From the IMG/VR virus record IMGVR_UViG_3300038393_001148: 64,000 nucleotides of DNA. The stretch is one strand, 5' to 3'. The translations under genes were made by a program, and so were the position numbers. The notes beneath the pieces are model-generated. The model saw only the letters and a list, made by a program, of their open reading frames with translations, was not told the origin of the DNA and searched no databases. This document shows, piece by piece, positions 7,001-61,296 of the stretch; position 1 is the stretch's first letter; each line of letters opens with the position of its first letter. This DNA is from a virus (lineage: Duplodnaviria; Heunggongvirae; Uroviricota; Caudoviricetes).

Positions 7001-7253
7001 GCTCGTTCCGGGTCCAGTTAGAGAATCCCTTCGGCTTTACGCCGTGATAAAGCTCCGAGCCGAAGATGGGCTTAATGCCTTTATCCTTCAAGGCACGAGC
7101 AAACTCTAGGTGCCCACTGACGGTACCGTGATCTGTGATACCGACAGCGGGGCACCCGAGTTCTTCTGCCCTCTGCACAATTTCGCGACAGGTGGATAGA
7201 CCGTCAAGTGCTGAGAACTCACTATGATTATGCAGAGGACAAAAGATACACAT
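4038..7253 (-). CDS. dnaE: DNA polymerase III alpha subunit
   Basis: PHP domain (LHNHSEFSALDG, ITDHG, NDAHF), GPGRGSAAG, FPDIDNDF, YSFNKSHS, C-terminal OB fold. Confidence 0.97.
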   Translation of the reverse strand: MCIFCPLHNHSEFSALDGLSTCREIVQRAEELGCPAVGITDHGTVSGHLEFARALKDKGIKPIFGSELYHGVKPKGFSNWTRNERDQAHFVAGAMTSEGLKNLWRLVDSASKNFRYVGRVHWDDLERYSEGLFATSACIQGLVPQGLENGDLTALDKYLEIYKDNFFIELHTYPGSDQEKLNLMLAQVAQERGIPVVYANDAHFAFPNQYPVHDAYVAMQTGESVDTPIQDRKMWHPMALYMMDEFEIRDALHYLPASLVDEALRNTVEIAERCDVELPAVSRHLPAFIPSECPYLEVEEEESAAKLFIDLVEAGIHERYGDNPDQSIWDRAEKEMTVFLEGGLEHYFLQAWDFCQFCDQEEITRGPGRGSAAGALVSYALGITDVDPIRYKLSFERFYNPGRAKGFPDIDNDFPQGDRKKIKEYLAKRWGSNNVRSIGTVTRMKPKAALDKTYNAMGVTFLEKEQVKKIVATVPDIEILGSDSIGWKDDGSGKKIYVWDHVGGHIQRWIDQQPQDRRTILSRWMNFLEVVTSRVSGYGVHASGVVVSDIPLDAELPSMWSASQECQATVFPMTEVETRQFVKQDILGLRTLDTLQDWHRQVKEGQGVNVKWSGLEAKDHPVEMWEMLDRGLATGIFQIEDKSFVRQLAIDFKPRSVEDLSIIVALNRPGPIRSGTVDRFVARRRGDEPVDYDHPFLESILEDTYGLFIYQEQVISLFSKMGYSESDADAVRKILGKKKPEDMKALRNGKGEWKGKGYSDIAPNFLGSSSDAIWSKLEEFALYSFNKSHSLCYATIAFRTLYAKYYAPAEFIMACIRTNPDDAGLYVAEGRRLGITVRPPDIRKSEVDVAVKDDAIYFGLSNVKGVKNAAAYIKELAERHNVWSLEDFQQALALESEDWTARKKAHKESGNPAQFKEPSPKMRCKSNLIEALNRVGAFDAYVERSVSMSVIQEAEKELLGIILTDNSDEAFANNQDLVDECDEYQWFQDSVSATAARLPGTIVNIRPVKTKAAGKDMGIIKIEWGSETIEFAVFPQQWMAYKFLWKERTPGIFMLKKTDRGIHFEDGMKLS

Positions 7254-15850: not shown

Positions 15851-16174
15851 TTAGTAACCTCCTTTCCGCCTATTTACCTCGCGCCCGCATCTGTTTGCAA
15901 GTAGACTTAATCTGGTTTCTCTCCACATACACACGCATCAGATTTTTCTTCCTATTAGGCCTATATTGAGCCGACATGCGCGCGTAGCACAGAGCGCTTA
16001 CGGGATCTTCTAGACGCTCTAGCCCCTTGCTCTCCCTCGTTTGATTTCATGGTCTGCCAGCAAGCGAGCTTTCCACTTCTTGGCTCCTCTGGGCGAGCAC
16101 TGAAGAGATACGAAATCTTTAACCAATCGGGAGAGTAAGTGGCTGTTGTAACTAGGGACCCTGAGGTTCCTACT

Positions 16175-17803
16175 ATGTCTCAATTTGCGGAGACGATCTA
16201 TAAGCAAAAGTACGCCTTCAAGGATGAGGTAGGTAATGTTGTCGAAACTTGGGCGGATACCGCTGATCGAGTAGCAAGCAATGTGCTTGCTGCCCTGGGT
16301 TACTCCGAGGACTCGTCAGAATTTTTTGCTATTTCTAGGCTAATTCGTCAGCGGAAGTTCATGCCGGGAGGACGTTATCTTTACGCTTCCGGAAGAGACC
16401 TTCATCAAACTCAGAATTGTCTCCTACTCAAGGCAGAGGATTCTCGCGAAGGATGGTCAGAGCTTCTTTACAAGTCATCAATGGCGTTGATGACGGGCGC
16501 AGGAATCGGAATTGATTATTCCGATGTTCGTCCTGATGGTTCCCCTATCAATAAGACAGGTGGACTAGCATCAGGACCTATTTCGTTGATGCAAATGATC
16601 AACGAGTGTGGAAGACATATTATGCAGGGAGGATCGAGACGTTCCGCTATCTGGGCTGGACTCAAATGGAATCACCCTGACTGTCCTACCTTTATTCGTG
16701 CTAAGGACTGGTCAGACGTTATCCGTGCTGAAAAAGAGAAGGACTTCAACTTTCCTGCTCCTCTAGATATGACCAACATCTCGGTCATTCTGGACGATGA
16801 ATTCTTTACTGCGTTTGATGACCCAAGTCATGAACAACATGAGTTGTCACATACTATTTATGATTCTGTCGTTAGAAGGATGCTTAAGACGGCAGAGCCA
16901 GGATTCTCGGTTGATACAGGCGATAACTCAGGAGAGACGCTAAGGAACGCCTGTACAGAAGTAACATCATCCGATGACTCAGATATTTGTAACCTCGGCT
17001 CCATCAATATGGCGAGGATCGACTCGCTGGATGAGTTCAAGGAGGCGGTACGCCTAGGAACGCTCTTCCTATTGGCGGGCACGGTTTATTCTCACCTCCC
17101 CTATGAGCAGGTGGCCGACACGCGGGCCAAGAATCGGCGGCTAGGTCTCGGCCTGATGGGGATCCATGAGTGGCTTCTCAAGCGCGGCTATGGCTATGAA
17201 CCGAATCGAGAGCTTCAGACGTGGCTTGAAGAATATGCGAAATCGACGGAGCTTGCCCACGCATGGGCGGACGAGCATGGGCTATCACGGCCGGTCAAGA
17301 CTCGCGCCATCGCGCCTACGGGAACCATCGGGATCATCGCCGAGACGACCACTGGTATCGAGCCAATCTTCTGCGTGGCATATAAGCGCCGGTACCTCGC
17401 GGACGGCAAGGACTGGAAGTTTCAATATGTCATCGATCCCACGGCCAAGCGGCTGATCGAGGACTACCAGATCGAGCCCGAAAAGATCGAGGATGCCTAC
17501 TCGCTGGCGTACGATGTAGAGCGCCGCGTAGCCATGCAGGCGTTCGTTCAACGCTACGTCGATCACGGCATTTCTTCCACGATTAACTTGCCGTACGTCT
17601 ACGAAGATGAAGCCGAGATCGAGGACTTCGGCAAGATGCTCATCGACTACCTGCCGGGGCTTCGAGGGATTACTTGCTATCCCGATGGAGCCAGGGGCGG
17701 GCAGCCCTTGACGGCGGTGGGGTATCAGGTGGCCGCTGGGCAGGAAGGCGTGGTCTTCGAGGAGGTCGAAGAACGTTGCGTCGGCGGTTCGTGCGGCATA
17801 TAG
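16175..17803 (+). CDS. nrdJ: Class II (B12-dependent) ribonucleotide reductase
   Basis: PGGRYL, GAGIG, NACTE, CNLGSIN, TRAIAPTGT, ISSTIN and C-terminal CVGGSC. Confidence 0.9.
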   Translation: MSQFAETIYKQKYAFKDEVGNVVETWADTADRVASNVLAALGYSEDSSEFFAISRLIRQRKFMPGGRYLYASGRDLHQTQNCLLLKAEDSREGWSELLYKSSMALMTGAGIGIDYSDVRPDGSPINKTGGLASGPISLMQMINECGRHIMQGGSRRSAIWAGLKWNHPDCPTFIRAKDWSDVIRAEKEKDFNFPAPLDMTNISVILDDEFFTAFDDPSHEQHELSHTIYDSVVRRMLKTAEPGFSVDTGDNSGETLRNACTEVTSSDDSDICNLGSINMARIDSLDEFKEAVRLGTLFLLAGTVYSHLPYEQVADTRAKNRRLGLGLMGIHEWLLKRGYGYEPNRELQTWLEEYAKSTELAHAWADEHGLSRPVKTRAIAPTGTIGIIAETTTGIEPIFCVAYKRRYLADGKDWKFQYVIDPTAKRLIEDYQIEPEKIEDAYSLAYDVERRVAMQAFVQRYVDHGISSTINLPYVYEDEAEIEDFGKMLIDYLPGLRGITCYPDGARGGQPLTAVGYQVAAGQEGVVFEEVEERCVGGSCGI

Positions 17804-26707: not shown

Positions 26708-27253
26708 ATGAACCTCCGCTGGGCCGCTTTCCTTGATGCGCTAGAAATTATCGTTCGGTACAGTTCGGTTCTCCTTGCTGTAGGATTATTGACCTGGGCC
26801 GTTTCTTCTATCACGGTTAACAAGAAGACACAAGAGATAAATCGCATTGTTCGCACTATCCAGGAAGCCAAGCGTGGACCTCGGGGTGAACGTGGTCCGT
26901 CTGGACCTCAAGGATTGCGAGGCCGCGAAGGTGCGGTTGGACCGAGAGGCGTTCAGGGTCGGACGGGCGCTAGCGGCCCTAGAGGACAGAGGGGTCCACA
27001 GGGCGCACAGGGCCAGCGAGGTGCCGAAGGGCTTCGGGGACCCCAGGGTGTACAGGGCGCTACAGGAAAAACTGGAGCAACTGGTCCCGAAGGCCCTCGC
27101 GGTGAGCGAGGCCCAACTGGCGCTCAAGGAGCTACGGGGCTACGCGGCCCTCAAGGAATCCCTGGAGTCCAGGGCCCGTTGGGACCTGAAGGGCCGATTG
27201 GCCCACGAGGACCAATCGGTTCGGTCACTTGTCAGGTTTTACAAAGCTGCTGA
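26708..27253 (+). CDS. Membrane-anchored collagen-like protein
   Basis: N-terminal TM helix followed by about 38 Gly-X-Y triplets. Confidence 0.85.
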   Translation: MNLRWAAFLDALEIIVRYSSVLLAVGLLTWAVSSITVNKKTQEINRIVRTIQEAKRGPRGERGPSGPQGLRGREGAVGPRGVQGRTGASGPRGQRGPQGAQGQRGAEGLRGPQGVQGATGKTGATGPEGPRGERGPTGAQGATGLRGPQGIPGVQGPLGPEGPIGPRGPIGSVTCQVLQSC

Positions 27254-27891: not shown

Positions 27892-27964
27892 GGTCCGGTA
27901 GCTCAGGGGAAGAGCGCCAGCCGTTATAAGCTGGAAGTCGTTGGTTCGAATCCAACCTGGATCA
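27892..27964 (+). tRNA. tRNA with an 8-nt anticodon loop (CGTTATAA; Ile(TAT)-like)
   Basis: Acceptor GGTCCGG/CTGGATC, D arm, CCAGC/GCTGG stem, canonical T arm. Confidence 0.7.
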
Positions 27965-28022
27965 CGGTCTACTCGACCTTAAGGAGTGGCACATCATCCG
28001 AATCCCATGAACGTATCTTGTC

Positions 28023-28208: not shown

Positions 28209-28601
28209 ATGGCCTTCAAGTTCTGCAACACAGAAACCCTGATCCGGCTCAATAACGAGTGCATCGATAATCCTCACTGCAATCGAGCTATTGATGAGAA
28301 GGCCTATGAGTTGCTTGACCCTGAGGGCACGCACCTTTTTGACTCGTCGCACATCGTCTTCCGGATGGCCGGTCATGGATTCGTCCGCCCGATGGTCAGC
28401 ATGAAGATGAAGGACACTATGGAGCCGGTGCAGGTCACCATGGATCTCTCCGATGAACAGTGGAATTCCCTTCGTACGTTCACGAAGGAGATGGACGATA
28501 TGTTGAAGTCGGGCAAGGAATGTGTGGACTGTGGATACGTCCGCCCGCACCAACCCGGCGACTACATTTGTCTGATCTGTAGGACCAGCGGTAAGAAGTA
28601 A
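28209..28601 (+). CDS. Protein with C-terminal DYxC Zn-ribbon tag (member 1)
   Basis: CVDC-x9-DYICLICR. Confidence 0.75.
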   Translation: MAFKFCNTETLIRLNNECIDNPHCNRAIDEKAYELLDPEGTHLFDSSHIVFRMAGHGFVRPMVSMKMKDTMEPVQVTMDLSDEQWNSLRTFTKEMDDMLKSGKECVDCGYVRPHQPGDYICLICRTSGKK

Positions 28602-28606
28602 ATAGT

Positions 28607-28680
28607 GTGGGGATAGCATAATTGGTTAATGCCCTTGGTTGTGGACCAAGACAATGTGGGTTCGAGTCCCACTCCTCACC
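28607..28680 (+). tRNA. tRNA-His(GTG)
   Basis: Cloverleaf, loop TTGTGGA, C73; T rather than G at -1. Confidence 0.9.
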
Positions 28681-28686
28681 CCTCAA

Positions 28687-28759
28687 GCCTCCGTAACTCA
28701 ATTGGCAGAGTGGCTGACTTTTAATCAGAACGTTGCAGGTTCGAGTCCTGCCGGGGGCA
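28687..28759 (+). tRNA. tRNA-Lys(TTT)
   Basis: Cloverleaf, loop CTTTTAA. Confidence 0.92.
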
Positions 28760-28761
28760 CT

Positions 28762-29109
28762 ATGTTCCAGGTTGGTGATGTACTCAAATATGCCAAATCT
28801 GAACTTGACCCTCCGATGATTTGCCAGCACGGAGAATACGTTGGCACAGTGCTGGCTATCGAGGAGGGTGGCCGGATGCGTGTTATGTGGCACTGGGATC
28901 CCGTAGAATATTGTCGCATCCATGGTTCCTCGATCTCTCGGATCCAAGAAACTTGGAAAGGGCAGTCGGGGGTTAGGGGTTATTGTGCCTCGGTTTCGGC
29001 CTTCTTTTATTTCTCCAATGATTGCGCAGTATGCGGCAGGACGATTGGGCACGTTTTGGATTACATCTGTAGTGAATGTCGTAACATGGCCGATTCGTCC
29101 AGTGGTTAG
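28762..29109 (+). CDS. Zn-ribbon tag protein (member 2)
   Basis: ATG 2 nt after tRNA-Lys; CAVC-x8-DYICSECR; stop codon lies inside tRNA-Glu. Confidence 0.7.
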   Translation: MFQVGDVLKYAKSELDPPMICQHGEYVGTVLAIEEGGRMRVMWHWDPVEYCRIHGSSISRIQETWKGQSGVRGYCASVSAFFYFSNDCAVCGRTIGHVLDYICSECRNMADSSSG

Positions 29110-29159
29110 GACGCCAGCCTCTCACGTTGGAAACACGGGTTCGAATCCCGTATCGGCTA
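29088..29159 (+). tRNA. tRNA-Glu(CTC)
   Basis: Cloverleaf, loop CTCTCAC. Confidence 0.92.
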
Positions 29160-29197
29160 CTCTTGATCCATTCTCCCGCGTTTGGTAGTATCTTCTC

Positions 29198-29533
29198 ATG
29201 AGAGTCCGCGCTGTATACACCCTCAAGTCCTTTGCCGAACTAAAGGATGCTCTTGAGTACGCCAAGAGCATCAAGGCGGGAGCGGGAAGCCATGCGGACG
29301 CTGAGCTAGAGATTGAGTTCGATAAGAAATCAAAGAAGCTCGGATCCCTCGGCGGCAAAGGACTCACAGCGATCTTGCCCACCTCACCTCCAGAGGAAGA
29401 GGAGTCAGCGCTTCCCTGGAAGGTGGTCGTGGTCAACGAGGATCCGGTGCCCGGAGGAAGTCCCTGCGCCGAGTGTGACCAGCCCCATTTCGAGGAAGAC
29501 TTCCTCTGCTCTGATTGTCGAGCCGCCGCATGA
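29198..29533 (+). CDS. Zn-ribbon tag protein (member 3)
   Basis: CAEC-x7-DFLCSDCR. Confidence 0.75.
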   Translation: MRVRAVYTLKSFAELKDALEYAKSIKAGAGSHADAELEIEFDKKSKKLGSLGGKGLTAILPTSPPEEEESALPWKVVVVNEDPVPGGSPCAECDQPHFEEDFLCSDCRAAA

Positions 29534-29820
29534 TCTTCTACAAGACCCGTACGGTGCAAAAGGGTAAAGAGCTTCACGACATCGAAGCTGTGAAGAAACG
29601 TTTGAAGGAAATTCACGACCATCCTAAGTCGGCTTATCACAAGGCGCTCAAGGAAAATCGTATTATGGTGTGCTACGACCAGAATCGCGCCACGCGGGGC
29701 AAATATGACATCATCGAATTCACCGAGGTCGAGCCTCCGGGCTCCTCGGTTTGCGGAGGTTGTCAGAAGAGGTTCTTTAGCCTAGAAGAAGACTATCTAT
29801 GTCCGAAGTGCCGCTCCTGA
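29530..29820 (+). CDS. Zn-ribbon tag protein (member 4)
   Basis: CGGC-x9-DYLCPKCR; ATGA overlap with member 3. Confidence 0.75.
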   Translation: MIFYKTRTVQKGKELHDIEAVKKRLKEIHDHPKSAYHKALKENRIMVCYDQNRATRGKYDIIEFTEVEPPGSSVCGGCQKRFFSLEEDYLCPKCRS

Positions 29821-30071
29821 ATCCAGAACTCCTGCGCCCCGGATTGGTTATGAAGGATTCTCGATGGACTGATTGGTACACCGTTGCCGAAGTCCATGGG
29901 CGCGAATTCATCTTTGATGGCTATCCCAATGCAGTGTATGATTTCTTTAGTCCGATAAGCGGTGGTACTTGGGTTATTCCTAACGCTAGTTGGTGTGCAT
30001 CTTGCGAAGAACCCGCACTAATAAATGACTACCTATGCCATCATTGTAGAAAGGAGGAGAATAATGGCTAG
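29799..30071 (+). CDS. Zn-ribbon tag protein (member 5)
   Basis: CASC-x7-DYLCHHCR. Confidence 0.7.
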   Translation: MSEVPLLNPELLRPGLVMKDSRWTDWYTVAEVHGREFIFDGYPNAVYDFFSPISGGTWVIPNASWCASCEEPALINDYLCHHCRKEENNG

Positions 30072-30711
30072 CCGCGCCCGTAGCGTCTCAATTAACGACC
30101 AGACTTTGTGGTTCGACATGAAGCTGGCTCATCTCAAGGCCACCGACAAGCAGATAGAGCTTTTGGCGACTATCGAAGATCTTGAGATGGATGATCTGCT
30201 AGAGTCGAACGTGACGCAGGGCGACGTGCTCAAGCGCCTCCGCGAGGCATTAGGCCAGGCTCCAATCCCTCCAGATGTTCTGCTCAAGAGGCAGAAGTGG
30301 AGACGGGAACGTCAGACGCAGCCGCCCTGCCGTCTCTGCCACAAGATTGGCGACAGTACACGTCACCACTTCGTGAATAAGTGGATTCTGAAGGAATTGT
30401 CAGGATACGGGCGCGAGTGGTCTAACAGACAAGAGAACTGTATTCCACTGTGTATTGATTGCCACCGGGATCTGCACGATAGAAGCGGCCCGTCGAAATC
30501 AATTGCGCATGTCCTCACGGCGCGCGAGAAGGATTTCGCCAATCGCGCTATCGAACGGCTCTCGGAAGAGCGTCCTAAGCTTCTTATCCTCATTGCCAAG
30601 GGTTCCGATACGGTATATGAGGCTCGACTGATCAAAGACTGGTTCGAAGGTCTGTTCGAGGTGGAAGCTGCTGAACTCGCTGAGGATGAGCCTCTCGCGG
30701 CGGTTGCGTAA
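30064..30711 (+). CDS. HNH-like endonuclease domain protein
   Basis: CRLC...RHH...NCIPLCIDCHRDLH. Confidence 0.7.
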   Translation: MASRARSVSINDQTLWFDMKLAHLKATDKQIELLATIEDLEMDDLLESNVTQGDVLKRLREALGQAPIPPDVLLKRQKWRRERQTQPPCRLCHKIGDSTRHHFVNKWILKELSGYGREWSNRQENCIPLCIDCHRDLHDRSGPSKSIAHVLTAREKDFANRAIERLSEERPKLLILIAKGSDTVYEARLIKDWFEGLFEVEAAELAEDEPLAAVA

Positions 30712-30725
30712 AGGCCGCCACACTT

Positions 30726-30798
30726 GCGCCTGTAGCTCAGTGGATAGAGCGCATCCCTGCGGAGGATGAGGTCACTGGTTCAAATCCAGTCAGGCGCG
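30726..30798 (+). tRNA. tRNA-Arg(GCG)
   Basis: Cloverleaf, loop CTGCGGA. Confidence 0.88.
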
Positions 30799-30800
30799 CT

Positions 30801-31103
30801 ATGGCCGAATGTGCTAATTGTGAAATGCGGCAGGCCCCGGAGGAAGATTTCCTCTGCCAATCCTGTCGGGACTGGGAGAACGGGGAGATCAGCTTGGAGA
30901 GTATCTTCGTCGCCGAGTCTCATGATAAATTTGCTCCACCAGAGGCCGCCATGGAGATGGCGAGATGCGATAACGTCGTTTACTTCACGATGTGCAAGTA
31001 CGAGGAAGGTACTTTCCACCGCAAGGCTGATGTCAAGGCTACGTTCTCCATGGACATCAAGACGTTGCTCAAGGCCCTTCGAGCATTGGATGTGGTAGAG
31101 TAA
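30801..31103 (+). CDS. Zn-ribbon tag protein (member 6, N-terminal tag)
   Basis: ATG 2 nt after tRNA-Arg; CANC-x8-DFLCQSCR. Confidence 0.75.
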   Translation: MAECANCEMRQAPEEDFLCQSCRDWENGEISLESIFVAESHDKFAPPEAAMEMARCDNVVYFTMCKYEEGTFHRKADVKATFSMDIKTLLKALRALDVVE

Positions 31104-31107
31104 ACTC

Positions 31108-31302
31108 ATGGCTCCTAAGAAGAAAGCGGCCTTCGTGCCGCAAGAAAAAGATGATGGCACTCGTTGGCGCGTCATGCGCTACACTGAGAAGGGTGTCACT
31201 GAGGTCTACCCGGCACGGTCGGGCCTCATGAAGCGCGAGGCTCAGCGACTAGCCGAAGGATTGGCGCTAGGGGGAGCCTTCATCGAGCAGGTCGAAGAAT
31301 AA
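31108..31302 (+). CDS. Hypothetical protein
   Basis: 64 aa ORF. Confidence 0.6.
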   Translation: MAPKKKAAFVPQEKDDGTRWRVMRYTEKGVTEVYPARSGLMKREAQRLAEGLALGGAFIEQVEE

Positions 31303-31304
31303 CT

Positions 31305-31378
31305 GCCCTTGTCGCCTAACGGATATGGCACTTGACTTCGGATCAAGAATAATGCGGGTTCGAATCCTGCCGGGGGCG
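31305..31378 (+). tRNA. tRNA-Arg(TCG)
   Basis: Cloverleaf, loop CTTCGGA. Confidence 0.88.
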
Positions 31379-31386
31379 CTCGTCTA

Positions 31387-32469
31387 ATGGACAACAATAT
31401 GCTGATCACACAACAGGAGCACAACGCCTACTCCTATCCGGCTCAGAGGTTTAATGAGACGGTAGAAGAGCTAAACCTCCCGCATCAGAGATACGCTCAG
31501 TGGAGCACTGATGCAGAAAACGCCGATCTTCAGGTGTATGTGGAGAGAGGCTTTTCGAGTCGTTACAACGACGACAATAGTCTCTACGTTGCCTTTACGG
31601 AGAGCGATAGCAAGGCTGCGGGTTGGATCCAGCTTCAAAGCGGTTTGGTATACGTCACCGTTGCGGCGCAAACGGCTGAGCGAGCGGAGTCCCTGCTAGC
31701 GGACATTGAGAATGTCATTCCTCGCTCCGAGGAGACGGACACGGAGTCCGAGGTTTCCATCGGCTTTTGGTCGCTCGGTCCGCAAGGTCCGAGCCGCATG
31801 AACCGGCGTATTGCGGTCCCAGTTTGGGACGAGATCAAGAATAATTACACCAAGGATGTCAAGGAGTCGCTTGAGTCCTTGATGGAGATTAAGAGCGGCA
31901 AGGATCTTGGCGACGGTCAGCTTATTCTCTGGCAGGGAGAGCCCGGCACGGGCAAGACCTATGCCCTGAGATCGCTAGCCTCGGCATGGCACAAGTGGTG
32001 TGAGTTTCATTACATCACCGATCCAGAGCAGTTCTTTGGAAGTCATTCCAACTACATGTTGAATGTCATCCTCCACGACAGCAACCCATATGGGGTGGAG
32101 GAGGAGCCAAGGTGGAAACTCCTCATTCTGGAGGATTCCGGCGAGCTATTGCGCGCCGATGCCAAGCAGGTCGTCGGTCAGGCGCTTTCTCGCTTGCTCA
32201 ACACGGTTGATGGTCTGATCGGTCAGGGCCTCCGTCTCTTGGTTCTCGTCACCACTAACGAGGAGATGGAAAAGCTCCATCCCGCTGTGTCCCGTCATGG
32301 GCGCTGCCTCCAGCAGGCAGAGTTTGGCCCCTTGACAAGGGACGAGGTTCGCGCTTGGATGGACGAGAATGACATCGAAGGCGATGTCGTCCCGATGTCG
32401 GCAGCTAACCTCTACGCCTTGAAGAACGGCAAGAAGGCTGAGGAAAAGCGCCTCGTAGGCTTCCACTAG
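31387..32469 (+). CDS. AAA+ ATPase (DUF5925-like N-terminus)
   Basis: GEPGTGKT, LILED, RLLNTVDGLIGQG, TTNE and PAVSRHGRC motifs. Confidence 0.85.
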   Translation: MDNNMLITQQEHNAYSYPAQRFNETVEELNLPHQRYAQWSTDAENADLQVYVERGFSSRYNDDNSLYVAFTESDSKAAGWIQLQSGLVYVTVAAQTAERAESLLADIENVIPRSEETDTESEVSIGFWSLGPQGPSRMNRRIAVPVWDEIKNNYTKDVKESLESLMEIKSGKDLGDGQLILWQGEPGTGKTYALRSLASAWHKWCEFHYITDPEQFFGSHSNYMLNVILHDSNPYGVEEEPRWKLLILEDSGELLRADAKQVVGQALSRLLNTVDGLIGQGLRLLVLVTTNEEMEKLHPAVSRHGRCLQQAEFGPLTRDEVRAWMDENDIEGDVVPMSAANLYALKNGKKAEEKRLVGFH

Positions 32470-32475
32470 CAGTTT

Positions 32476-32549
32476 GCGGCTGTAGCTCAGTTGGCTAGAG
32501 CGTCTCCTTGCCATGGAGAAGGTCGAGGGTTCGAATCCCTTCAGCCGCT
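32476..32549 (+). tRNA. tRNA-Gly(GCC)
   Basis: Cloverleaf, loop TTGCCAT. Confidence 0.93.
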
Positions 32550-32606
32550 TTGTTTGGCATCTTTTGGGAAGGGTATTCCTAGTACAAACCCTTTTCGAAA
32601 GGATTT

Positions 32607-32765
32607 ATGTCAGTCTTACTTTGGATACTCGGTATTATCCTCGTCATATTTGGCTTCTTCTGGATTCTCGGAGGATCGCTGCTATATGGCATCATCGCCA
32701 TTGTGATAGGCCTACTCCTAATGGGCTATCTCGGCGGTGGGTTTGGATATACCCGACGATTGTAA
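32607..32765 (+). CDS. Small two-TM membrane protein (52 aa), resembling actinobacterial GPGG-motif proteins
   Basis: Manual translation MSVLLWILGIILVIFGFFWILGGSLLYGIIAIVIGLLLMGYLGGGFGYTRRL; GAAAGGA SD. Confidence 0.65.
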   Translation: MSVLLWILGIILVIFGFFWILGGSLLYGIIAIVIGLLLMGYLGGGFGYTRRL

Positions 32766-33260
32766 TCATCAGGGCAACCGTATGCAGTAACTTGGGCTCC
32801 CGAGAGGGAGCCCTTGTTATTGAGGAAAGTCCGGACACTGCGCGAGCCACTGAGGCTGGAACCTCAGCAGGGACGGGTAACAATGGAGGGAGATCGCTGT
32901 CGTCCGTACCCCTTAAGTGGGACGACTTAATGCTCATGTGGGAGCGGCGTCACTTGTACCTCAGCCGACAGTCAAGCGGTGCAACCTCAAGCTGGTCAAG
33001 GGCATGACCTAGGTAGAGGGCAGTCCTTCGGGACCAACGCATTGGTAGTAGAAGATACGATCCACAAATTAGCTACACGTCATTGGCTGCGAACGGCCAC
33101 TCCGGTTACTAAGAGTGGGATGACGGGGCCAGGGTGGAGAATCGGGAATCCCTGGATGCGTTGAGATGGATATACGGATCGCAGGTAGTAATAGGTAGAG
33201 GCAGGCATCACGTCGCTACCTAGCGTGTAGAACAGAATCCGGCTTAAAGCCAGATGATTA
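32763..33260 (+). ncRNA. rnpB: RNase P RNA (divergent, about 498 nt)
   Basis: P4 strands GAGGAAAGTCCGG (32822) and ACAGAATCCGGCTTA (33232); P1 TAATCATC/GATGATTA; P2 CCGTAT/ATACGG. Confidence 0.88.
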
Positions 33261-33276
33261 CTGACACGTAAGTGTC

Positions 33277-33564
33277 GTGAAGTCCCTATGGGCGACCATT
33301 CAGGACAATCCTGTCTTATTCAGGAGGATAAACGGGTGGCTCACCGTGGTTTGGTTCATTGGGGCCATTCCAATTTGTTTGTTCTTAGCAAACTCGGTTC
33401 CATTCTTGGTGTTCATCTCCGTTTATGCCGTAGTGACGGGCCACCTTTCTACTTGGCAGGCCGCGAACGTAGAGGTACGCCAAGAGGAAGAGTCTCAAAA
33501 GCGAGACGATGAAGCTCCTGAGCGTATCGAGAAGAAGGTCGAGCAATTGAACAAGCAGGTGTAA
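33277..33564 (+). CDS. Membrane protein, two TM helices plus an acidic/basic tail
   Basis: 95 aa, GTG start. Confidence 0.6.
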   Translation: MKSLWATIQDNPVLFRRINGWLTVVWFIGAIPICLFLANSVPFLVFISVYAVVTGHLSTWQAANVEVRQEEESQKRDDEAPERIEKKVEQLNKQV

Positions 33565-33569
33565 CACTT

Positions 33570-33640
33570 TGGGGAATGAGGTAACGGCAGCCTGCGAGGT
33601 TTTGGCCCTCGTCGTCCTGGTTCGAATCCAGGTTCCCCAG
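33570..33640 (+). tRNA. tRNA-Gln(TTG)
   Basis: Cloverleaf, loop TTTTGGC. Confidence 0.88.
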
Positions 33641-33682
33641 CTTTCAGCTAGATAATCAAGAAGTCCGAGAGGTAACCTATGA

Positions 33683-34294
33683 ATGGGTTACCTTAACGGC
33701 CGACTTCCATCAGCAGTTCTTGCGTCCATCCCTGGTGGACGCCTGCGTAGGGATGCGGCCAAGGCATTCAACGCTATGAATGCTGAGTCCGAAGCCCGCT
33801 TCGGAGTCACGCTGCGGCCTACGGGTAGGATGTCGTCCTACAGGACGTTGAATGAGCAGCGTTATCTCTACAACCTGTACCTCCAGGGTAGAGGGAACCT
33901 AGCCGCCGTTCCTGGCACATCCAACCACGGTCTGGGCCTTGCCGTTGACTTGGCAACGCATCAGATGCGTGATATAGTAGACCAAATAGGCGCAAAATAC
34001 GGCTGGGCCAAGAGATGGTCAGACGCGCCTTCTGAATGGTGGCACATTAAGTGGAGGAGCGGAGTTTGGAACGGAAAGGTACCAGATAAATACAAAACCC
34101 TAAAGCGGGGACAGACTGGGCCTTCGGTTCTACGAATGAAGAAGGCGATGAGGAAACACGGACTTCAGCAATTCAATGCCTACACTCCGTTTTTCGATAA
34201 GCGGACGGAGGCTGCACTAAAGCGGCTTCAGCATCGTCATGGGTTGAAGGCAGACGGGATCTGTGGACCTAAAACATGGTCTCTGATCACCTAG
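33683..34294 (+). CDS. Peptidase M15 (D,D-carboxypeptidase-like) with a PG-binding domain; endolysin-like
   Basis: SYR..EQ, PGTSNHGLGLAVD and EWWH motifs; C-terminal LKADGICGPKTW. Confidence 0.88.
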   Translation: MGYLNGRLPSAVLASIPGGRLRRDAAKAFNAMNAESEARFGVTLRPTGRMSSYRTLNEQRYLYNLYLQGRGNLAAVPGTSNHGLGLAVDLATHQMRDIVDQIGAKYGWAKRWSDAPSEWWHIKWRSGVWNGKVPDKYKTLKRGQTGPSVLRMKKAMRKHGLQQFNAYTPFFDKRTEAALKRLQHRHGLKADGICGPKTWSLIT

Positions 34295-34366
34295 CCTGTC
34301 TAGCTCAATTGGTAGAGCGCCAACCTTGTAAGTTGGGGGTTATCGGTTCGAGTCCGATGGCAGGCT
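34294..34366 (+). tRNA. tRNA-Thr(TGT)
   Basis: Cloverleaf, loop CTTGTAA. Confidence 0.92.
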
Positions 34367-34369
34367 CTT

Positions 34370-34579
34370 ATGCTTGATCGCAGTGCAAGACTTCTTACTG
34401 AGTACCAGTATGAAATTGCTTTGAAGAAAGAGCAAGAGTGGTTTAATCGTGTATCGCTTGAATGTCCAGAATGTGGGGTTAGGACCATCCTCCCTAGGGA
34501 GGACTATCTCTGCGCGGAATGTCGCCTATCCTATGGCGACAACGGCGAAATGGGCTATACCATGCCCGACTTGCGATGA
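34370..34579 (+). CDS. Zn-ribbon tag protein (member 7)
   Basis: ATG 3 nt after tRNA-Thr; CPEC-x9-DYLCAECR. Confidence 0.7.
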   Translation: MLDRSARLLTEYQYEIALKKEQEWFNRVSLECPECGVRTILPREDYLCAECRLSYGDNGEMGYTMPDLR

Positions 34580-34844
34580 AATTCCGCGTCTCCAGCAGTG
34601 GTGTCCTGACTGTCGTGATCGTGGCGTAGCCACGAAGGGCCTAGGCCGCAACCGCAGTGGTAACGTCATGCTTGAGCAGATGAAGCTTGAGCGGCAGAAA
34701 ATGGAGATGGAGGCTGCTCAGGAAGCTGAGCAAGCTCGTATCGAAAGTCGTACCATGATGTGCCCAGAGTGTGATACACTGGGCTTCGTGGAAGAGAACG
34801 ACTATATTTGTACGAAATGCCGTAATGATGTCTCGGGGGTGTAG
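34533..34844 (+). CDS. Zn-ribbon tag protein (member 8)
   Basis: N-terminal CPTC/CPDC and C-terminal CPEC-x9-DYICTKCR. Confidence 0.7.
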   Translation: MATTAKWAIPCPTCDEIPRLQQWCPDCRDRGVATKGLGRNRSGNVMLEQMKLERQKMEMEAAQEAEQARIESRTMMCPECDTLGFVEENDYICTKCRNDVSGV

Positions 34845-34907
34845 CTCAGTTGGTAGAGCGCCTGCTTTGCAAGCAGGATGTCAGGGGTTCGAGTCCCCTC
34901 TCCTCCA
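34835..34907 (+). tRNA. tRNA-Ala(TGC)
   Basis: Cloverleaf, loop TTTGCAA, G3.U70. Confidence 0.9.
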
Positions 34908-34962
34908 TGAAACAAACTTGGCGACGAGCCAGGGCAACGCGATAGCGCGACTACGGTCGATA

Positions 34963-35039
34963 ATGAGACGGGCGGCTGGTGCGGCTAAGGGAGTCATGTC
35001 CCTCTATGCTGAGGTTCGAATCCTCGAAGCTCGTCTCAT
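34963..35039 (+). ncRNA. Degenerate tRNA-like RNA
   Basis: 11-bp ATGAGACGGGC/GCTCGTCTCAT stem, GAGG-TTCGAAT-CCTC arm, AGGGA/TCCCT arm with a 6-nt GTCATG loop. Confidence 0.45.
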
Positions 35040-35041
35040 AC

Positions 35042-35113
35042 GCGGGTAAGGTGTTACTGGCTGCACGGGAGCCTTCCAAGCTCTAAGAACGGGTTCGAGT
35101 CCCGTTACCCGCT
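35042..35113 (+). tRNA. tRNA-Gly(TCC)
   Basis: Cloverleaf, loop CTTCCAA. Confidence 0.88.
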
Positions 35114-35116
35114 TAA

Positions 35117-35255
35117 GTAACCTATCCTAGGGGCCGGAACCCTGATGATGGTCGGGTTGCTGCCTGAGTAGCTCAGAAATTGTCACCAGACGGAGCGAGC
35201 CGGAACTCGCATTGATGTCTGTAATGAGAGCGGCAGAACTTATCCTGTAGGTCAC
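35117..35255 (+). ncRNA. Structured RNA candidate (139 nt)
   Basis: GTAACCTA/TAGGTCAC ends (7 of 8 pairs); two CCGGAA hexaloop hairpins. Confidence 0.45.
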
Positions 35256-35284
35256 GGTCTGACGAACCGTCTCGGGCGACACTT

Positions 35285-35569
35285 ATGTTGAACGATTTCG
35301 GAGTTCCCACTTCGGCTTCCAAGAGGAAATGTCGCAAGCCAAAGTACCTGAAGGGTTACAAGGCCTGGTGCGGGGTGCATCAGGAGACCCGGAAGATGGC
35401 GGCTCGCGCTAGCAGGAAGAATAATCGGATCGAGATGACAATCGACCCGGCGAAGATGAAGCGCACGCCCGATCAGGGCAAACGGCAGGTCGCGGCTAAT
35501 CGCTGCGGCAACGGTTGCGGCCGTCGTGCTGTAATGAAGGATTATCTTTGCCCGCGCTGTCGCGGGTGA
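35285..35569 (+). CDS. Zn-ribbon tag protein (member 9)
   Basis: CGNGC-x7-DYLCPRCR. Confidence 0.7.
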   Translation: MLNDFGVPTSASKRKCRKPKYLKGYKAWCGVHQETRKMAARASRKNNRIEMTIDPAKMKRTPDQGKRQVAANRCGNGCGRRAVMKDYLCPRCRG

Positions 35570-35572
35570 TCT

Positions 35573-35646
35573 GGAGACGTAGCTCAGTTGGTTAGAGCGC
35601 TGCCCTGTCACGGCAGAGGTCGCGGGTTCGAGCCCCGTCGTTTCCG
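35573..35646 (+). tRNA. tRNA-Asp(GTC)
   Basis: Cloverleaf, loop CTGTCAC. Confidence 0.93.
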
Positions 35647-35669
35647 CTTAGTATATTTAGTCAATTGCT

Positions 35670-36059
35670 ATGCCTAACATATACTATTCCCCAGAGAAGT
35701 TCGGCCTCAAGGTCGTCGCGGAGCTAGAGTACTCAGACATGAACTATGTGTTTGACACACTGGTTGTGTGGGCCGATGAGAATGGAGTTCTCTATTCTGC
35801 ACGCGATGCAGGTTGTTCATGTCCTACTCCGTTTGAGGATTATGGATCCATCGCTGAGCTAGATCGCGTTCACTATTCCTCTCTGAGGGATGAGGTGCAG
35901 GCATCTAGGGGCGATGGGAACCCAGATTTTGATCGGGATCGGCGAGTCTTCTTGCTCGACGTGAAGAATTTCACGGGTTGGGATACCAACCCATGCGCTG
36001 ATTGCAGACAGCCAGCACTCTTGGGTGACTACCTCTGCAAGGCCTGCCGGGAGGCCTAA
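35670..36059 (+). CDS. Zn-ribbon tag protein (member 10)
   Basis: CADC-x7-DYLCKACR; N-terminal domain with DAGCSCPTPF. Confidence 0.75.
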   Translation: MPNIYYSPEKFGLKVVAELEYSDMNYVFDTLVVWADENGVLYSARDAGCSCPTPFEDYGSIAELDRVHYSSLRDEVQASRGDGNPDFDRDRRVFLLDVKNFTGWDTNPCADCRQPALLGDYLCKACREA

Positions 36060-36069
36060 TCCCGGTCCC

Positions 36070-36144
36070 GGCTCTATAGCTCAGTTGGTTCAGAGCGCAC
36101 GACTCATAATCGTGAGGTCGAGAGTTCAAGTCTCTCTAGAGCCA
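36070..36144 (+). tRNA. tRNA-Met(CAT), elongator type
   Basis: Cloverleaf, loop CTCATAA, G1-C72. Confidence 0.9.
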
Positions 36145-47847: not shown

Positions 47848-50172
47848 GTGGATACAAGTAAGCTCGATCAGCAAGTAGCAAATCTTGCGAAACGCGGTGT
47901 AGTTCTGCCTAAGCACCCATTGCGGGCCAGGCAGGACGCGCAGGCGATGCACCAGATGGCTCGTAATCCAGGGGATCTACGGGCCACCATCGCCTCCACC
48001 ATTAAGCCGGGAGATCCTAATGCCGCGACCCTGCGGCAGATGGATGGTAACAACGCTCTAGCTCGCCGCATGCGGACCAGCCGGATGAATAAGACGGGGG
48101 CCTCCGATACGTGGGCCGCGATGCCGCGCTTCTACGATCCCATGGAGTACTGGGATCTCTCGGGCCTGCCGTGGAATATGGCCGACGAAGGCCATCGCCA
48201 CAAGCTTCATAAGTGGCTGCGTCTGTTCTATTCAACGCACTACTTGATACCTATCCTGATTGACATCTTCACCCGCTTCCCGCTGGTGGGTATGGAGATG
48301 TACTGCAAGGATCAGGCGCTCGCCAACTTCTACGAAGAGTTGTTCATGAACAAGCTCGACTACCCCAACTTCCTCGTGTCGTTGGGGCGAGAGTTCTGGA
48401 CGGTCGGCGAGGCCTTCCCGCTGGGTTCGTTCGATGAGGATCTTGGAGTCTGGGAGCGCGAGGAGCTAATCAACCCCGAAGACGTGGTGATTAAGAACTT
48501 CCCGATGTTGGGGTCCAAGCAGATGTTGATCACCCCTCCGGACTACCTCAAGAAGTTGGTCCAGGAGAAGTCGCCCGCACGCGAGTATCGCCAGCTAGAG
48601 CTAAATTTCCCAGAGTTAATCCCGTATCTGCGCCGTAATGAGCACATCCCGGTTTCGGGCGTCTTGCTCAAGCAGGTCGCCAATAAGCTCACGGACTGGG
48701 ACGATCACGGCACGCCGATCCTCTTGCGAGGCCTGAGGACGCTCATGCACGAGGAGAAGCTGATGGCCTCTCAGGATGCTATTGCCGAGCGCCTGTACTC
48801 GCCGTTTATTTTGGCGAAGCTTGGAATTCAGGATCTTGGAGATGGTCAGCCACCATGGGTGCCGGATGAAGATCAGCTAGAGATGGTCCGAGATGACATT
48901 GACATTGCGTTGTCCTCGGACTTCCGTCTCATGGTCCATCACTTCGGCTTGGACATTGAGAACGTCTTCGGCCGCGAGCAGATGCCTCGACTGGGAGACG
49001 ACTTCGACCGCATCGAGCGTCGGCTCATGCAGATCTTCGGCGTCAACCCGAGCCTCCTATCGGCCGGTGCCGCCACCCAACCGTACGCCTCCAGCGCACT
49101 CCAGGCCGAGTTCCTCAACCAGATCCTCCGTACCTTCCAGGATTATCTCAAGGCACACTTCGAGTCGCGCGCCCTTGTCGTAGCAGAAGCCCAAGAGCAT
49201 TATGACTATGAAATGCGTGGATCCACCAAGGTTCCGCTTTACGAGGAAGTTGTAGAGTATGACAAGGACGGTAACAAGACGATCCAGACTCGTCCGAAGC
49301 TACTTATACCAGAACTACAGTTTCAGACGTTGGATCTACGTGATGAGGCTACTGAACGCCAATTTATGCAGAGCCTTCGTGCTATGGGCGTTCCTTTGTC
49401 TGACAAGCGACTCATGGTCGGTGTTTCGTTTGATGTCGCGGATGAGATCGATGACTACAACGAGGAGCTAGTCAAGAAGACGGTCAAGCAGCAGGAAGCC
49501 AAGATGAAGACCTACACCATCTTGCGCGAGCGCAACCTGCCGATTCCTCCAGACCTCAAGGCCGAGGTCGAGTCCGTCCTCCAGGCTCCGGGTTCGCCAT
49601 CGGCGCTGCCTCCAGCAGCCACAGGCGGCGGCGGACCAGCGGGCCCAGGCGGGGGAGCCGGTCCCTCAGGTGGCCCCGGAGAGGCGATTGTTATGCCGTC
49701 GCCTCCGCAGGGCCTCATGGGGCCGGGCGGCATCGGCAATGACATGTCCATGGGCGGTGCTCCCGCCGCCACTCCGCAGGGCGCTATGGGACCAGGAGGA
49801 GGCTCTACCGCGCCTCCGGTCTCTATGGAGCGTCGAAAGGGGATGCCACAGATGGCGAGCGTCGAAGCGCAAGGGAAGGACGCCTCGCATACAGAACCGG
49901 AAGCACAGGACGATAAAGTTTCAGAGCGTGAAGTGGTGCTGCTGCCTCGCAGCGCCAAGACCAAGGAAAACCGTAAGAAATACTCCATTGTTGATGATGA
50001 GGAAATAAATGACGAAGCCGATGCTGACAGTGGCAGAGGTAGCGGAGATGACGGGCCTGACGAAGAAGGCAATCCGTCGTCGCTGCGAGAAGGGCCAGAT
50101 CAAGTGCCAGGTGGAGGGTCCGGGTCTTCCTCGGATGATTCCGAGGGAAGAGGCAAACCGCCTACTAGCTGA
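47848..50172 (+). CDS. Probable portal protein
   Basis: Follows terminase; helical ~550-aa core plus a Gly/Pro-rich tail; assignment by context and overall pattern. Confidence 0.6.
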   Translation: MDTSKLDQQVANLAKRGVVLPKHPLRARQDAQAMHQMARNPGDLRATIASTIKPGDPNAATLRQMDGNNALARRMRTSRMNKTGASDTWAAMPRFYDPMEYWDLSGLPWNMADEGHRHKLHKWLRLFYSTHYLIPILIDIFTRFPLVGMEMYCKDQALANFYEELFMNKLDYPNFLVSLGREFWTVGEAFPLGSFDEDLGVWEREELINPEDVVIKNFPMLGSKQMLITPPDYLKKLVQEKSPAREYRQLELNFPELIPYLRRNEHIPVSGVLLKQVANKLTDWDDHGTPILLRGLRTLMHEEKLMASQDAIAERLYSPFILAKLGIQDLGDGQPPWVPDEDQLEMVRDDIDIALSSDFRLMVHHFGLDIENVFGREQMPRLGDDFDRIERRLMQIFGVNPSLLSAGAATQPYASSALQAEFLNQILRTFQDYLKAHFESRALVVAEAQEHYDYEMRGSTKVPLYEEVVEYDKDGNKTIQTRPKLLIPELQFQTLDLRDEATERQFMQSLRAMGVPLSDKRLMVGVSFDVADEIDDYNEELVKKTVKQQEAKMKTYTILRERNLPIPPDLKAEVESVLQAPGSPSALPPAATGGGGPAGPGGGAGPSGGPGEAIVMPSPPQGLMGPGGIGNDMSMGGAPAATPQGAMGPGGGSTAPPVSMERRKGMPQMASVEAQGKDASHTEPEAQDDKVSEREVVLLPRSAKTKENRKKYSIVDDEEINDEADADSGRGSGDDGPDEEGNPSSLREGPDQVPGGGSGSSSDDSEGRGKPPTS

Positions 50173-60927: not shown

Positions 60928-61296
60928 GTGCCGAAGCGCGATAAGCGATACAGGGCAGCGGGCTCCAGGAAGGCTAAGGTCCGAGGAGTCTTTGTCGAGC
61001 ACGTCCGTCGAGATAAGCTACTGGCGCTATACTCCGGACGCTGTGGAATATGCGGCGATCACGTCAATCCCTACACCTTTACGGTTGACCATATCGTCCC
61101 CGCCTCGCGCGGAGGCGAGCACTCCTACGACAACTGCCAGCCCAGCCATCCGCTTTGCAATGCGCGCAAAGCGGACATGTCGCTAGAGGAATATGACCGC
61201 TTCTGGCCGGTTAAAGGGAAGAGGTATAAAAATCCCTATGTCAACCATGTGGACCGTCGAAAGCGCCGAAAAAAGTCATCCTCCCGTTCTTCCTGA
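60928..61296 (+). CDS. HNH endonuclease
   Basis: CGICG, VDHIVP.SRGG, NCQPSHPLCNARK. Confidence 0.9.
   Translation: MPKRDKRYRAAGSRKAKVRGVFVEHVRRDKLLALYSGRCGICGDHVNPYTFTVDHIVPASRGGEHSYDNCQPSHPLCNARKADMSLEEYDRFWPVKGKRYKNPYVNHVDRRKRRKKSSSRSS

Follow-up and report, generated by a model that had tools for sequence, protein, structure and literature searches.

A four-cysteine tag shared by unrelated small proteins in one clade of uncultured, tRNA-rich large phages

A stretch of 64,000 nucleotides (nt) from a virus of the class Caudoviricetes (IMG/VR record IMGVR_UViG_3300038393_001148), hereafter called the window, is part of a large phage genome rich in transfer RNA (tRNA) genes. Ten small open reading frames (ORFs) on its plus strand, between 28.2 and 36.1 kb, carry one and the same short cysteine motif, or tag, C-x2(3)-C-x7-9-D[YF][LI]C-x2-C-R (x, any residue), on bodies that are otherwise unrelated. 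Here, we have analyzed this tag in the window and in related sequences and found that it defines a real and hitherto unnamed protein family, which occurs in a single clade of large uncultured phages and not beyond it. Purifying selection maintains the tag at the protein level, and its transfer from gene to gene reflects ancient shuffling of domains and no recent exchange of DNA. We tentatively interpret it as a common docking handle for one shared partner.

A first-pass annotation of the window, made without database searches, had listed the ten tagged ORFs (W1 to W10 in Table 1), and all of them are present. When a six-frame regular expression, C-x2-3-C-x6-11-[DEN][YFW][LIVM]C-x2-C-[RK], was run over the whole window, exactly ten matches were obtained, all on the plus strand and between positions 28521 and 36050, and despite this looser pattern every one of them reads D-[YF]-[LI] and R; 100 shuffled windows gave no motif match. 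The annotated details of the tags also agree with the sequence. A single tag has a Cx3C knuckle (at 35504, in W9), and nine tags are C-terminal or nearly so and one is N-terminal, lying 1-8 residues before the stop codon in eight ORFs, 17 residues before it in the ORF at 34370 (W7), and from residue 4 in the ORF at 30801 (W6). The tagged ORFs are interleaved with tRNA genes, as had been described, of which eleven lie in the tag region (28607-36144). A still looser scan revealed an eleventh, degenerate ribbon (CPTC-x8-QWCPDCR, 34563-34613) at the N-terminus of W8, and its orthologs P0013 and P0022 retain both ribbons.

The distribution of the tag was studied with a profile built from the ten window tags, which was searched against 1.84 billion representative proteins. 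This hidden Markov model search yielded 82 matches at E ≤ 1e-3, four of which are repeat artefacts, so that approximately 78 are real small tagged proteins. They are 49-168 residues long, have spacers of x7-9 and contain the Asp and the Arg in all cases, an invariance that is partly circular in that the query came from the window's own tags. In a profile-independent census of the window plus related contigs, 38 of 43 distinct short C4 motifs in open frames had the full D-aromatic-aliphatic...R signature. Most tags are C-terminal (71 of 87), and N-terminal, internal, and double placements also occur. All 20 clusters whose source was checked consist of metagenomic sequences only. A search for longer proteins with a W7-type tag found none, which is weak evidence, and the double-tag protein P0009 gave no tag match by tblastn against 50,697 phage records. 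The cultured large actinophages Myrna, Muntaha, E3, Jay2Jay, and Phrappuccino had no tag match at E ≤ 1, whereas the same method finds nine in G001, a related IMG/VR contig. In addition, an IMG/VR scan for the tag with a nine-residue spacer returned 19 stretches, about half of them out of frame, and with this one spacing multi-copy clustering was seen in G001 only and single occurrences elsewhere.

No Pfam, NCBIfam, or PHROG model matched the tag above threshold, the only matches being sub-threshold ones to generic zinc ribbons. The tag did not reach a Pfam gathering score; the best scores in the window were those of W8 with its two ribbons (24.7 bits to Zn_ribbon_6, cut-off 25; 23.2 bits to DZR_2, cut-off 27), the other window proteins scored at most 16 bits against Pfam zinc ribbons, and 12 of 91 family members matched DZR_2 weakly (E < 0.01). 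A profile search of PDB sequences found no relative of the tag, only the repeated CPECGK knuckles of C2H2 arrays and sub-threshold ribbons, and a literature search on the motif found nothing. By these measures the tag is not a described domain.

The first-pass annotation had proposed, as an alternative to docking, that the tag could be a cassette through which effectors are shuffled by recombination. Codon usage at the conserved positions contradicts this. The invariant Arg is encoded by six codons among the window tags (AGG, CGT, CGA, CGC, AGA, and CGG), both codons are in use for each of Cys, Asp, and Tyr, the Leu/Ile position uses five codons, and the mean nucleotide identity over the 24-nt tag core is 0.63. 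A DNA repeat or a homologous-recombination cassette is excluded because synonymous codons of conserved residues vary freely. Moreover, homologous exchange would need a longer shared stretch than any present. The location of tags at gene ends beside tRNA genes would suit such a cassette, which we nevertheless consider exceedingly improbable.

The bodies to which the tags are joined are unrelated, as had been thought. After masking of the tags, the ten window proteins fell into ten separate BLAST groups and 86 tagged proteins into 60 body groups. Relatedness was also assessed by profile-profile comparison for one pair, the adjacent and translationally coupled W3 and W4, for which hhalign gave a probability of 5% once the tags had been removed; the other pairs were compared by BLAST. 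The body types include DUF7574, helical hairpins, membrane anchors, and acidic as well as very basic bodies, and some bodies resemble SH3/KOW barrels as judged by eye. The clearest case is W10, whose residues 3-75 match Pfam DUF7574 well above the gathering score (72.7 bits, cut-off 27; E 2.9e-20). Homologs of this domain in Streptomyces phages Muntaha and Jay2Jay and in Rhodococcus phage E3 align with W10 and keep the DSGCSCPSP motif, but they lack the zinc tag and end in a short helix without Cys knuckles. W10 is thus a demonstrable fusion, as its homologs share the body without the tag. A literature search on DUF7574 also found nothing. A Pro/Gly-rich linker usually connects the tag to its body; Pro is 1.9-fold enriched over the ten residues upstream of the tag, and linkers that fit [IV]P-x-G-[ST]-x are found repeatedly in different body families. 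The DUF7574 fusion, the roughly 60 body groups, the variety of placements, the Pro-rich linker, and the predicted autonomous folding described below all bear out the earlier view of a portable module on unrelated bodies.

AlphaFold modeling of the 34-residue tag alone, from a 92-sequence alignment, gave a mean predicted local distance difference test (pLDDT) score of 85.8; the two strands (residues 4-8 and 15-19) surround the first knuckle, and the helix begins immediately past the third Cys. In all ten window tags the four Cys form two CxxC knuckles (one of them Cx3C) separated by a short hairpin. In the AlphaFold2 model of W3 (pLDDT 71.7), the tag forms a separate zinc-knuckle-plus-short-helix unit after the last strand of the body. 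The tag is therefore predicted to be an autonomously folding four-Cys mini-domain of approximately 20-25 residues, with a beta-hairpin carrying the first CxxC and a short helix starting from the second. It presumably binds zinc and may instead bind iron in the manner of rubredoxin. Neither the W3 model nor the tag model had a significant fold match in Foldseek searches of PDB or by VIA-align. In BFVD, the tag superposes on small ribbons of uncharacterized phage proteins, HNH nucleases, and regulators (template modeling (TM) score up to 0.87, root-mean-square deviation 0.6-1.0 Å, E ≥ 0.09). Because this mini-fold is common on unrelated phage proteins, the shape of the tag is generic, and it is the sequence signature and the expansion that are distinctive.

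Comparison of related contigs showed how this expansion took place. G001 (107 kb, 67% complete) shows synteny along the entire window, with protein identities of 45-78%, and L009, a 20-kb stretch of it, has 37 tRNA genes whose order is nearly that of the window. Besides the nine tags in G001, there are six in L005 (within 10.2 kb), six in L018, five in L017, four in L001 (within 11.5 kb), and four in L016. The G001 orthologs of W3, W4, W7, and W9 occupy the same positions relative to tRNAs, and in these pairs the tags are 58-80% identical and the bodies 20-45%. W1, W5, W6, W8, and W10 have no counterpart in the incomplete G001, which implies that tagged genes turn over. G002 (140 kb, 87% complete; portal protein 61% identical) represents a sister lineage that is syntenic on both flanks of the tRNA/tag island. 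Between its reductase and lysin genes (G002:113.6-115.8 kb) there are only about 2.3 kb and three tRNAs, as against the island at 17.8-33.7 kb of the window. The only canonical tag of G002, CNNC-x12-DYVCRACRW, terminates a 170-residue multi-ribbon protein with two C4 ribbons, the first of which is close to the DUF5679 threshold (26.2 bits vs. 27). The start of this gene (L029:184-693 = G002:20184-20696) overlaps the stop codon of an ATP-dependent DNA ligase gene. A similar arrangement is seen in L001, L016, and L018, where the gene order is ligase, tagged gene, tagged gene, Ku, and the first tagged gene again overlaps the ligase stop in L016 and L018. A MoxR-type AAA_5 ATPase, a DUF2201/VWA protein, the ligase, and Ku flank the tagged genes in these three contigs, and all of them are present in G002. 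Most members of the ligase-adjacent tagged family, whose context was read in L016 and L018, have an N-terminal transmembrane helix (Table 1). With many tags in one clade, one in the sister lineage, and none in cultured actinophages, the expansion is clade-specific: the tag expanded from a single ligase-coupled copy in the sister lineage to dozens in the tRNA-rich clade, and this coincided with growth of the tRNA island.

A common docking handle for one shared partner is the reading that we prefer, with some reserve. It is favored because a tethered module behind a flexible linker cannot stabilize a separate body, and because the tag occurs at either end and in double dose, is acidic, and sits on many bodies, including a membrane anchor, in one clade. 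In such a mechanism, the Tyr/Phe would pack into the tiny core of the tag, and the opposite face of strand and helix would be formed by the Asp, the aliphatic residue, and the Arg, with an acidic loop beside it. This face would bind the shared partner, and each variable body would bring its own activity or target to the same place. As the order of ligase, tagged gene(s), and Ku is conserved and a membrane-anchored tagged family lies beside the ligase, the first places to look for the partner would be the DNA-end-joining module or the membrane. A more specific form of this reading is possible but doubtful, namely that the tag is an address code that plugs different small effector bodies into a single hub (a host machine, the ligase/Ku end-joining module, or a membrane site organized by the transmembrane members) and was built from a ligase-coupled ancestor alongside a near-complete tRNA set. 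The window genes that are present in G001 but absent from G002 are ThyX, HNH nucleases, and small orphans, none of which is hub-like.

Several observations weigh against docking. No partner was found, and no co-evolution signal or experiment ties the tag to anything. The circularity mentioned above, arising from the use of the ten window tags as the query, weakens the apparent invariance of Asp and Arg among database matches. The four conserved residues other than Cys could all have a purely structural role: in 62 of 87 tags the Asp follows a turn former (G, N, or D), pointing to a tight turn, and the Arg falls within the first turn of the C-terminal helix in the AlphaFold2 models. The same mini-fold is also common on unrelated phage proteins and on tiny stand-alone proteins, so that its shape is nonspecific. 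The earlier argument that the D-aromatic-aliphatic triplet and the Arg go beyond what zinc binding needs is therefore weak and does not convince by itself, since turn and core residues are expected in small zinc domains. C2H2 fingers, for example, have conserved aromatic and aliphatic core residues.

These turn and helix positions and the widespread mini-fold would also suit the main alternative, a fold-stabilizing cap, that is, a generic zinc staple for small fast-evolving proteins or a C-terminal protection from host proteases, with no shared partner and with D, Y/F, L/I, and R all structural. The aromatic plus aliphatic pair before the third Cys suits a tiny zinc core, tags are better conserved than bodies, and their placement is mostly C-terminal, all of which fit such a cap. 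We regard it as rather unlikely, since an independently folding module tethered behind a Pro/Gly linker could not stabilize a separate body, double and N-terminal tags are hard to fit with a C-terminal cap, and the heavy use of the tag in one clade would be unexplained given the one copy in a sister lineage whose gene set is similar.

The charge of the tag bears on another alternative, in which the tag is a nucleic-acid-binding ribbon that anchors proteins on DNA or RNA, such as DNA ends, phage tRNA precursors, or mRNA. The one copy that looks ancestral is coupled to the gene of a DNA ligase, two tagged genes lie between ligase and Ku, similar mini-ribbons occur on HNH and restriction nucleases, and W9 is very basic. 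Yet the mean charge of the tags is -1.6, 75% of them are net negative, 4% reach +2 or more, the median isoelectric point (pI) of tagged proteins is 5.5, and the sole conserved basic residue is one Arg. Such acidic tags fit protein binding better than nucleic-acid binding, which appears improbable.

Generic zinc ribbons, such as Pfam DZR_2 (PF18912), Zn_ribbon_3 (PF13248), DZR (PF12773), and Zn_Ribbon_TF (PF08271), share with the tag the two CxxC knuckles, the length of approximately 20-30 residues, and the hairpin-plus-short-helix layout. The tag differs from them in having Asp, an aromatic, and an aliphatic residue at positions -3, -2, and -1 of the third Cys, an Arg after the fourth Cys, a short x7-9 spacer, and many copies per genome on unrelated bodies. 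The small stand-alone phage ribbons NinF and YhfH and the PhnA ribbons, which were feature neighbors of the tag in an Atlas search, are generic ribbons only. The C4 zinc finger of TraR/DksA has the form C-x2-C-x17-C-x2-C with conserved Ile, Arg, and Pro; it was considered and rejected, as the distance from second to third Cys is 10-12 residues in the window tags and no Pfam or NCBIfam match was obtained.

Weak fold neighbors of the tag were the zinc-binding domain (ZBD) of ClpX, HPV E7 CR3, YacG, CsfB, and PHD/RING fingers. The N-terminal ZBD of ClpX (2ds5), HPV E7 CR3 (2f8b), YacG (1lv3/4tma), and CsfB (5n7y) are also C4 mini-domains and serve in docking or dimerization, but their spacers are longer than that of the tag and the analogy is a functional one only. 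The fold matches to these four are not significant (E 1.9-5.4). With 2ds5, Foldseek gave TM scores of 0.58/0.48 at E 4.3 and 28% identity over 36 columns, and this structure was absent from the PDB-sequence profile matches at E ≤ 10; identity to 5n7y was 31% over 29 columns. ClpX and CsfB presumably also have, like the tag, an aromatic-aliphatic pair before their third Cys. The presence of dimerizing zinc modules (ClpX ZBD, HPV E7 CR3, CsfB) among these non-significant neighbors, together with the proteins that have two tags and the membrane-anchored family, might suggest that tags pair with each other and form a combinatorial protein network, possibly gathered at the membrane by the transmembrane members. 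Positive evidence for such pairing is absent, the structural matches having E > 1, and a complex prediction for a tag homodimer with zinc scored 0.01, which speaks neither for nor against binding. We consider tag-to-tag association decidedly improbable.

Several systems are known in which one short module on many unrelated proteins recruits them to one site or host machine, including the capsid-targeting sequence of T4 internal proteins, encapsulin cargo-loading peptides, and PRANC/F-box modules on poxvirus ankyrin proteins. These are linear peptides or F-box-like helices with known receptors, whereas the tag folds as a zinc domain and is unrelated to them in sequence and structure. By analogy with the T4 and encapsulin tags, unrelated small proteins with one terminal, mostly C-terminal, tag could be labeled for the virion or a phage compartment. 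We hold this to be highly improbable, given that the tagged genes have tRNA, replication, repair, and lysis genes as neighbors and are located outside the head module, that the tag can be N-terminal or internal, and that no protease site is evident.

As to the docking partner itself, the first-pass annotation had named, among others, the AAA ATPase encoded at 31387, which has an N-terminal DUF5925 domain and, among cultured phages, is closest to its homologs (37-38% identity) in the Mycobacterium phages ScoobyDoobyDoo, Myrna, and Phabba. Its phyletic distribution does not follow that of the tag: Myrna has the AAA homolog and no tags, whereas G001 has nine tags and no AAA homolog in its 107 kb. 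It was rejected as an obligate partner on these grounds, with the limit that G001 is only 67% complete, and it is unlikely to be the shared partner. In G002, too, a search found no homolog of this ATPase.

The features of the window and the tagged genes are listed in Table 1. The phage has no close cultured relative; megablast of the tag region against the phage collection matched tRNA genes only, and the window polymerase shares about 30% identity with its counterparts in large Mycobacterium, Gordonia, and Rhodococcus phages. The HNH gene at 30025 overlaps the W5 tag, has a 57% identical counterpart in G001, and is absent from G002. W2, W6, and W7 (28762, 30801, and 34370) start 1-2 nt past tRNA 3' ends, and the ends of W2 and W8 extend 10-22 nt into the following tRNA gene, an arrangement compatible with transcription together with the tRNAs and release when these are processed. 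ARAGORN also predicted a tRNA with a four-base anticodon (ttat) at 27892-27965 and, in the relative L009 (3587-3657), a tRNA with anticodon tta that reads UAA; both are possible tRNAs of the suppressor type. The middle of the tRNA island also encodes a collagen-repeat protein (Pfam Collagen, E 4e-20) whose N-terminus contains a hydrophobic segment.

Table 1. Tagged genes and other features of the window (positions are those of the window unless a contig is named; aa, amino acids)
Feature	Position	Strand	Details
W1, 130 aa	28209..28601	+	tag 28521-28583 (x9 spacer, DYI), 5 aa before stop; tagged homologs P0057, P0091, P0092
W2, 115 aa	28762..29109	+	1 nt after tRNA-Lys; tag 29023-29082 (x8, DYI); last codons overlap tRNA-Glu
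W3, 111 aa	29198..29533	+	alpha/beta body, PVPGGSP linker; tag 29465-29521 (x7, DFL); 8 tagged orthologs; G001 ortholog 48% identical
W4, 96 aa	29530..29820	+	start overlaps W3 stop (ATGA); tag 29752-29814 (x9, DYL)
W5, 90 aa	29799..30071	+	alternative start 29850 possible; tag 29994-30050 (x7, DYL); overlaps HNH ORF start (30025)
W6, 100 aa	30801..31103	+	1 nt after tRNA-Arg; N-terminal tag 30810-30869 (x8, DFL)
W7, 69 aa	34370..34579	+	2 nt after tRNA-Thr; helix, then tag 34463-34525 (x9, DYL) and 17-aa tail; family alignment A5 built; ortholog in G001
W8, 103 aa	34533..34844	+	degenerate ribbon 34563-34613 plus canonical tag 34761-34823 (x9, DYI)
W9, 94 aa	35285..35569	+	very basic body, pI 10.6; tag 35504-35563 (Cx3C, x7, DYL); G001 ortholog 57% identical
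W10, 129 aa	35670..36059	+	DUF7574 body, residues 3-75; tag 35994-36050 (x7, DYL)
Membrane-anchored tagged family	L016:6166-6489, L018:1347-1706		also P0036, P0061, P0066, P0079; transmembrane helix, Pro-rich spacer, acidic helix, C-terminal tag
DnaE-type polymerase	4038-7253	-	
Class II ribonucleotide reductase	16139-17803		
tRNA genes, 39	19.0-36.1 kb		
Collagen-repeat protein	26708-27253		
HNH endonuclease	30025-30711		inside tag cluster; called by PHROGs or Pfam HNH
AAA ATPase	31387-32469		N-terminal DUF5925 domain
Portal protein	47848-50172		
Second HNH endonuclease	60928-61296		of the two HNH genes, one called by PHROGs, the other by Pfam HNH
ThyX			within window
Lysins			encoded in window

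What is new here is the test of selection at the protein level, the proof of fusion from DUF7574, the predicted autonomous fold, the contrast with a sister lineage that has one ligase-coupled copy, and the finding that neither the cassette reading nor an obligate partnership with the AAA ATPase holds. Of the hundreds of small orphan genes in large phages, most lack a known role, and in the clade described here many such genes share one folded handle. The one copy in the sister lineage and the dozens in the clade make the tag a clear example of a domain that has expanded and been shuffled in phages. If it proves to be only a fold-stabilizing cap, it would show phages building many new small proteins around one metal staple, which is of modest interest. 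If it is a docking module, it would be a natural recruitment tag of approximately 25 residues, and if the handle does have one receptor, finding it would place a whole block of phage dark matter in a single functional context.

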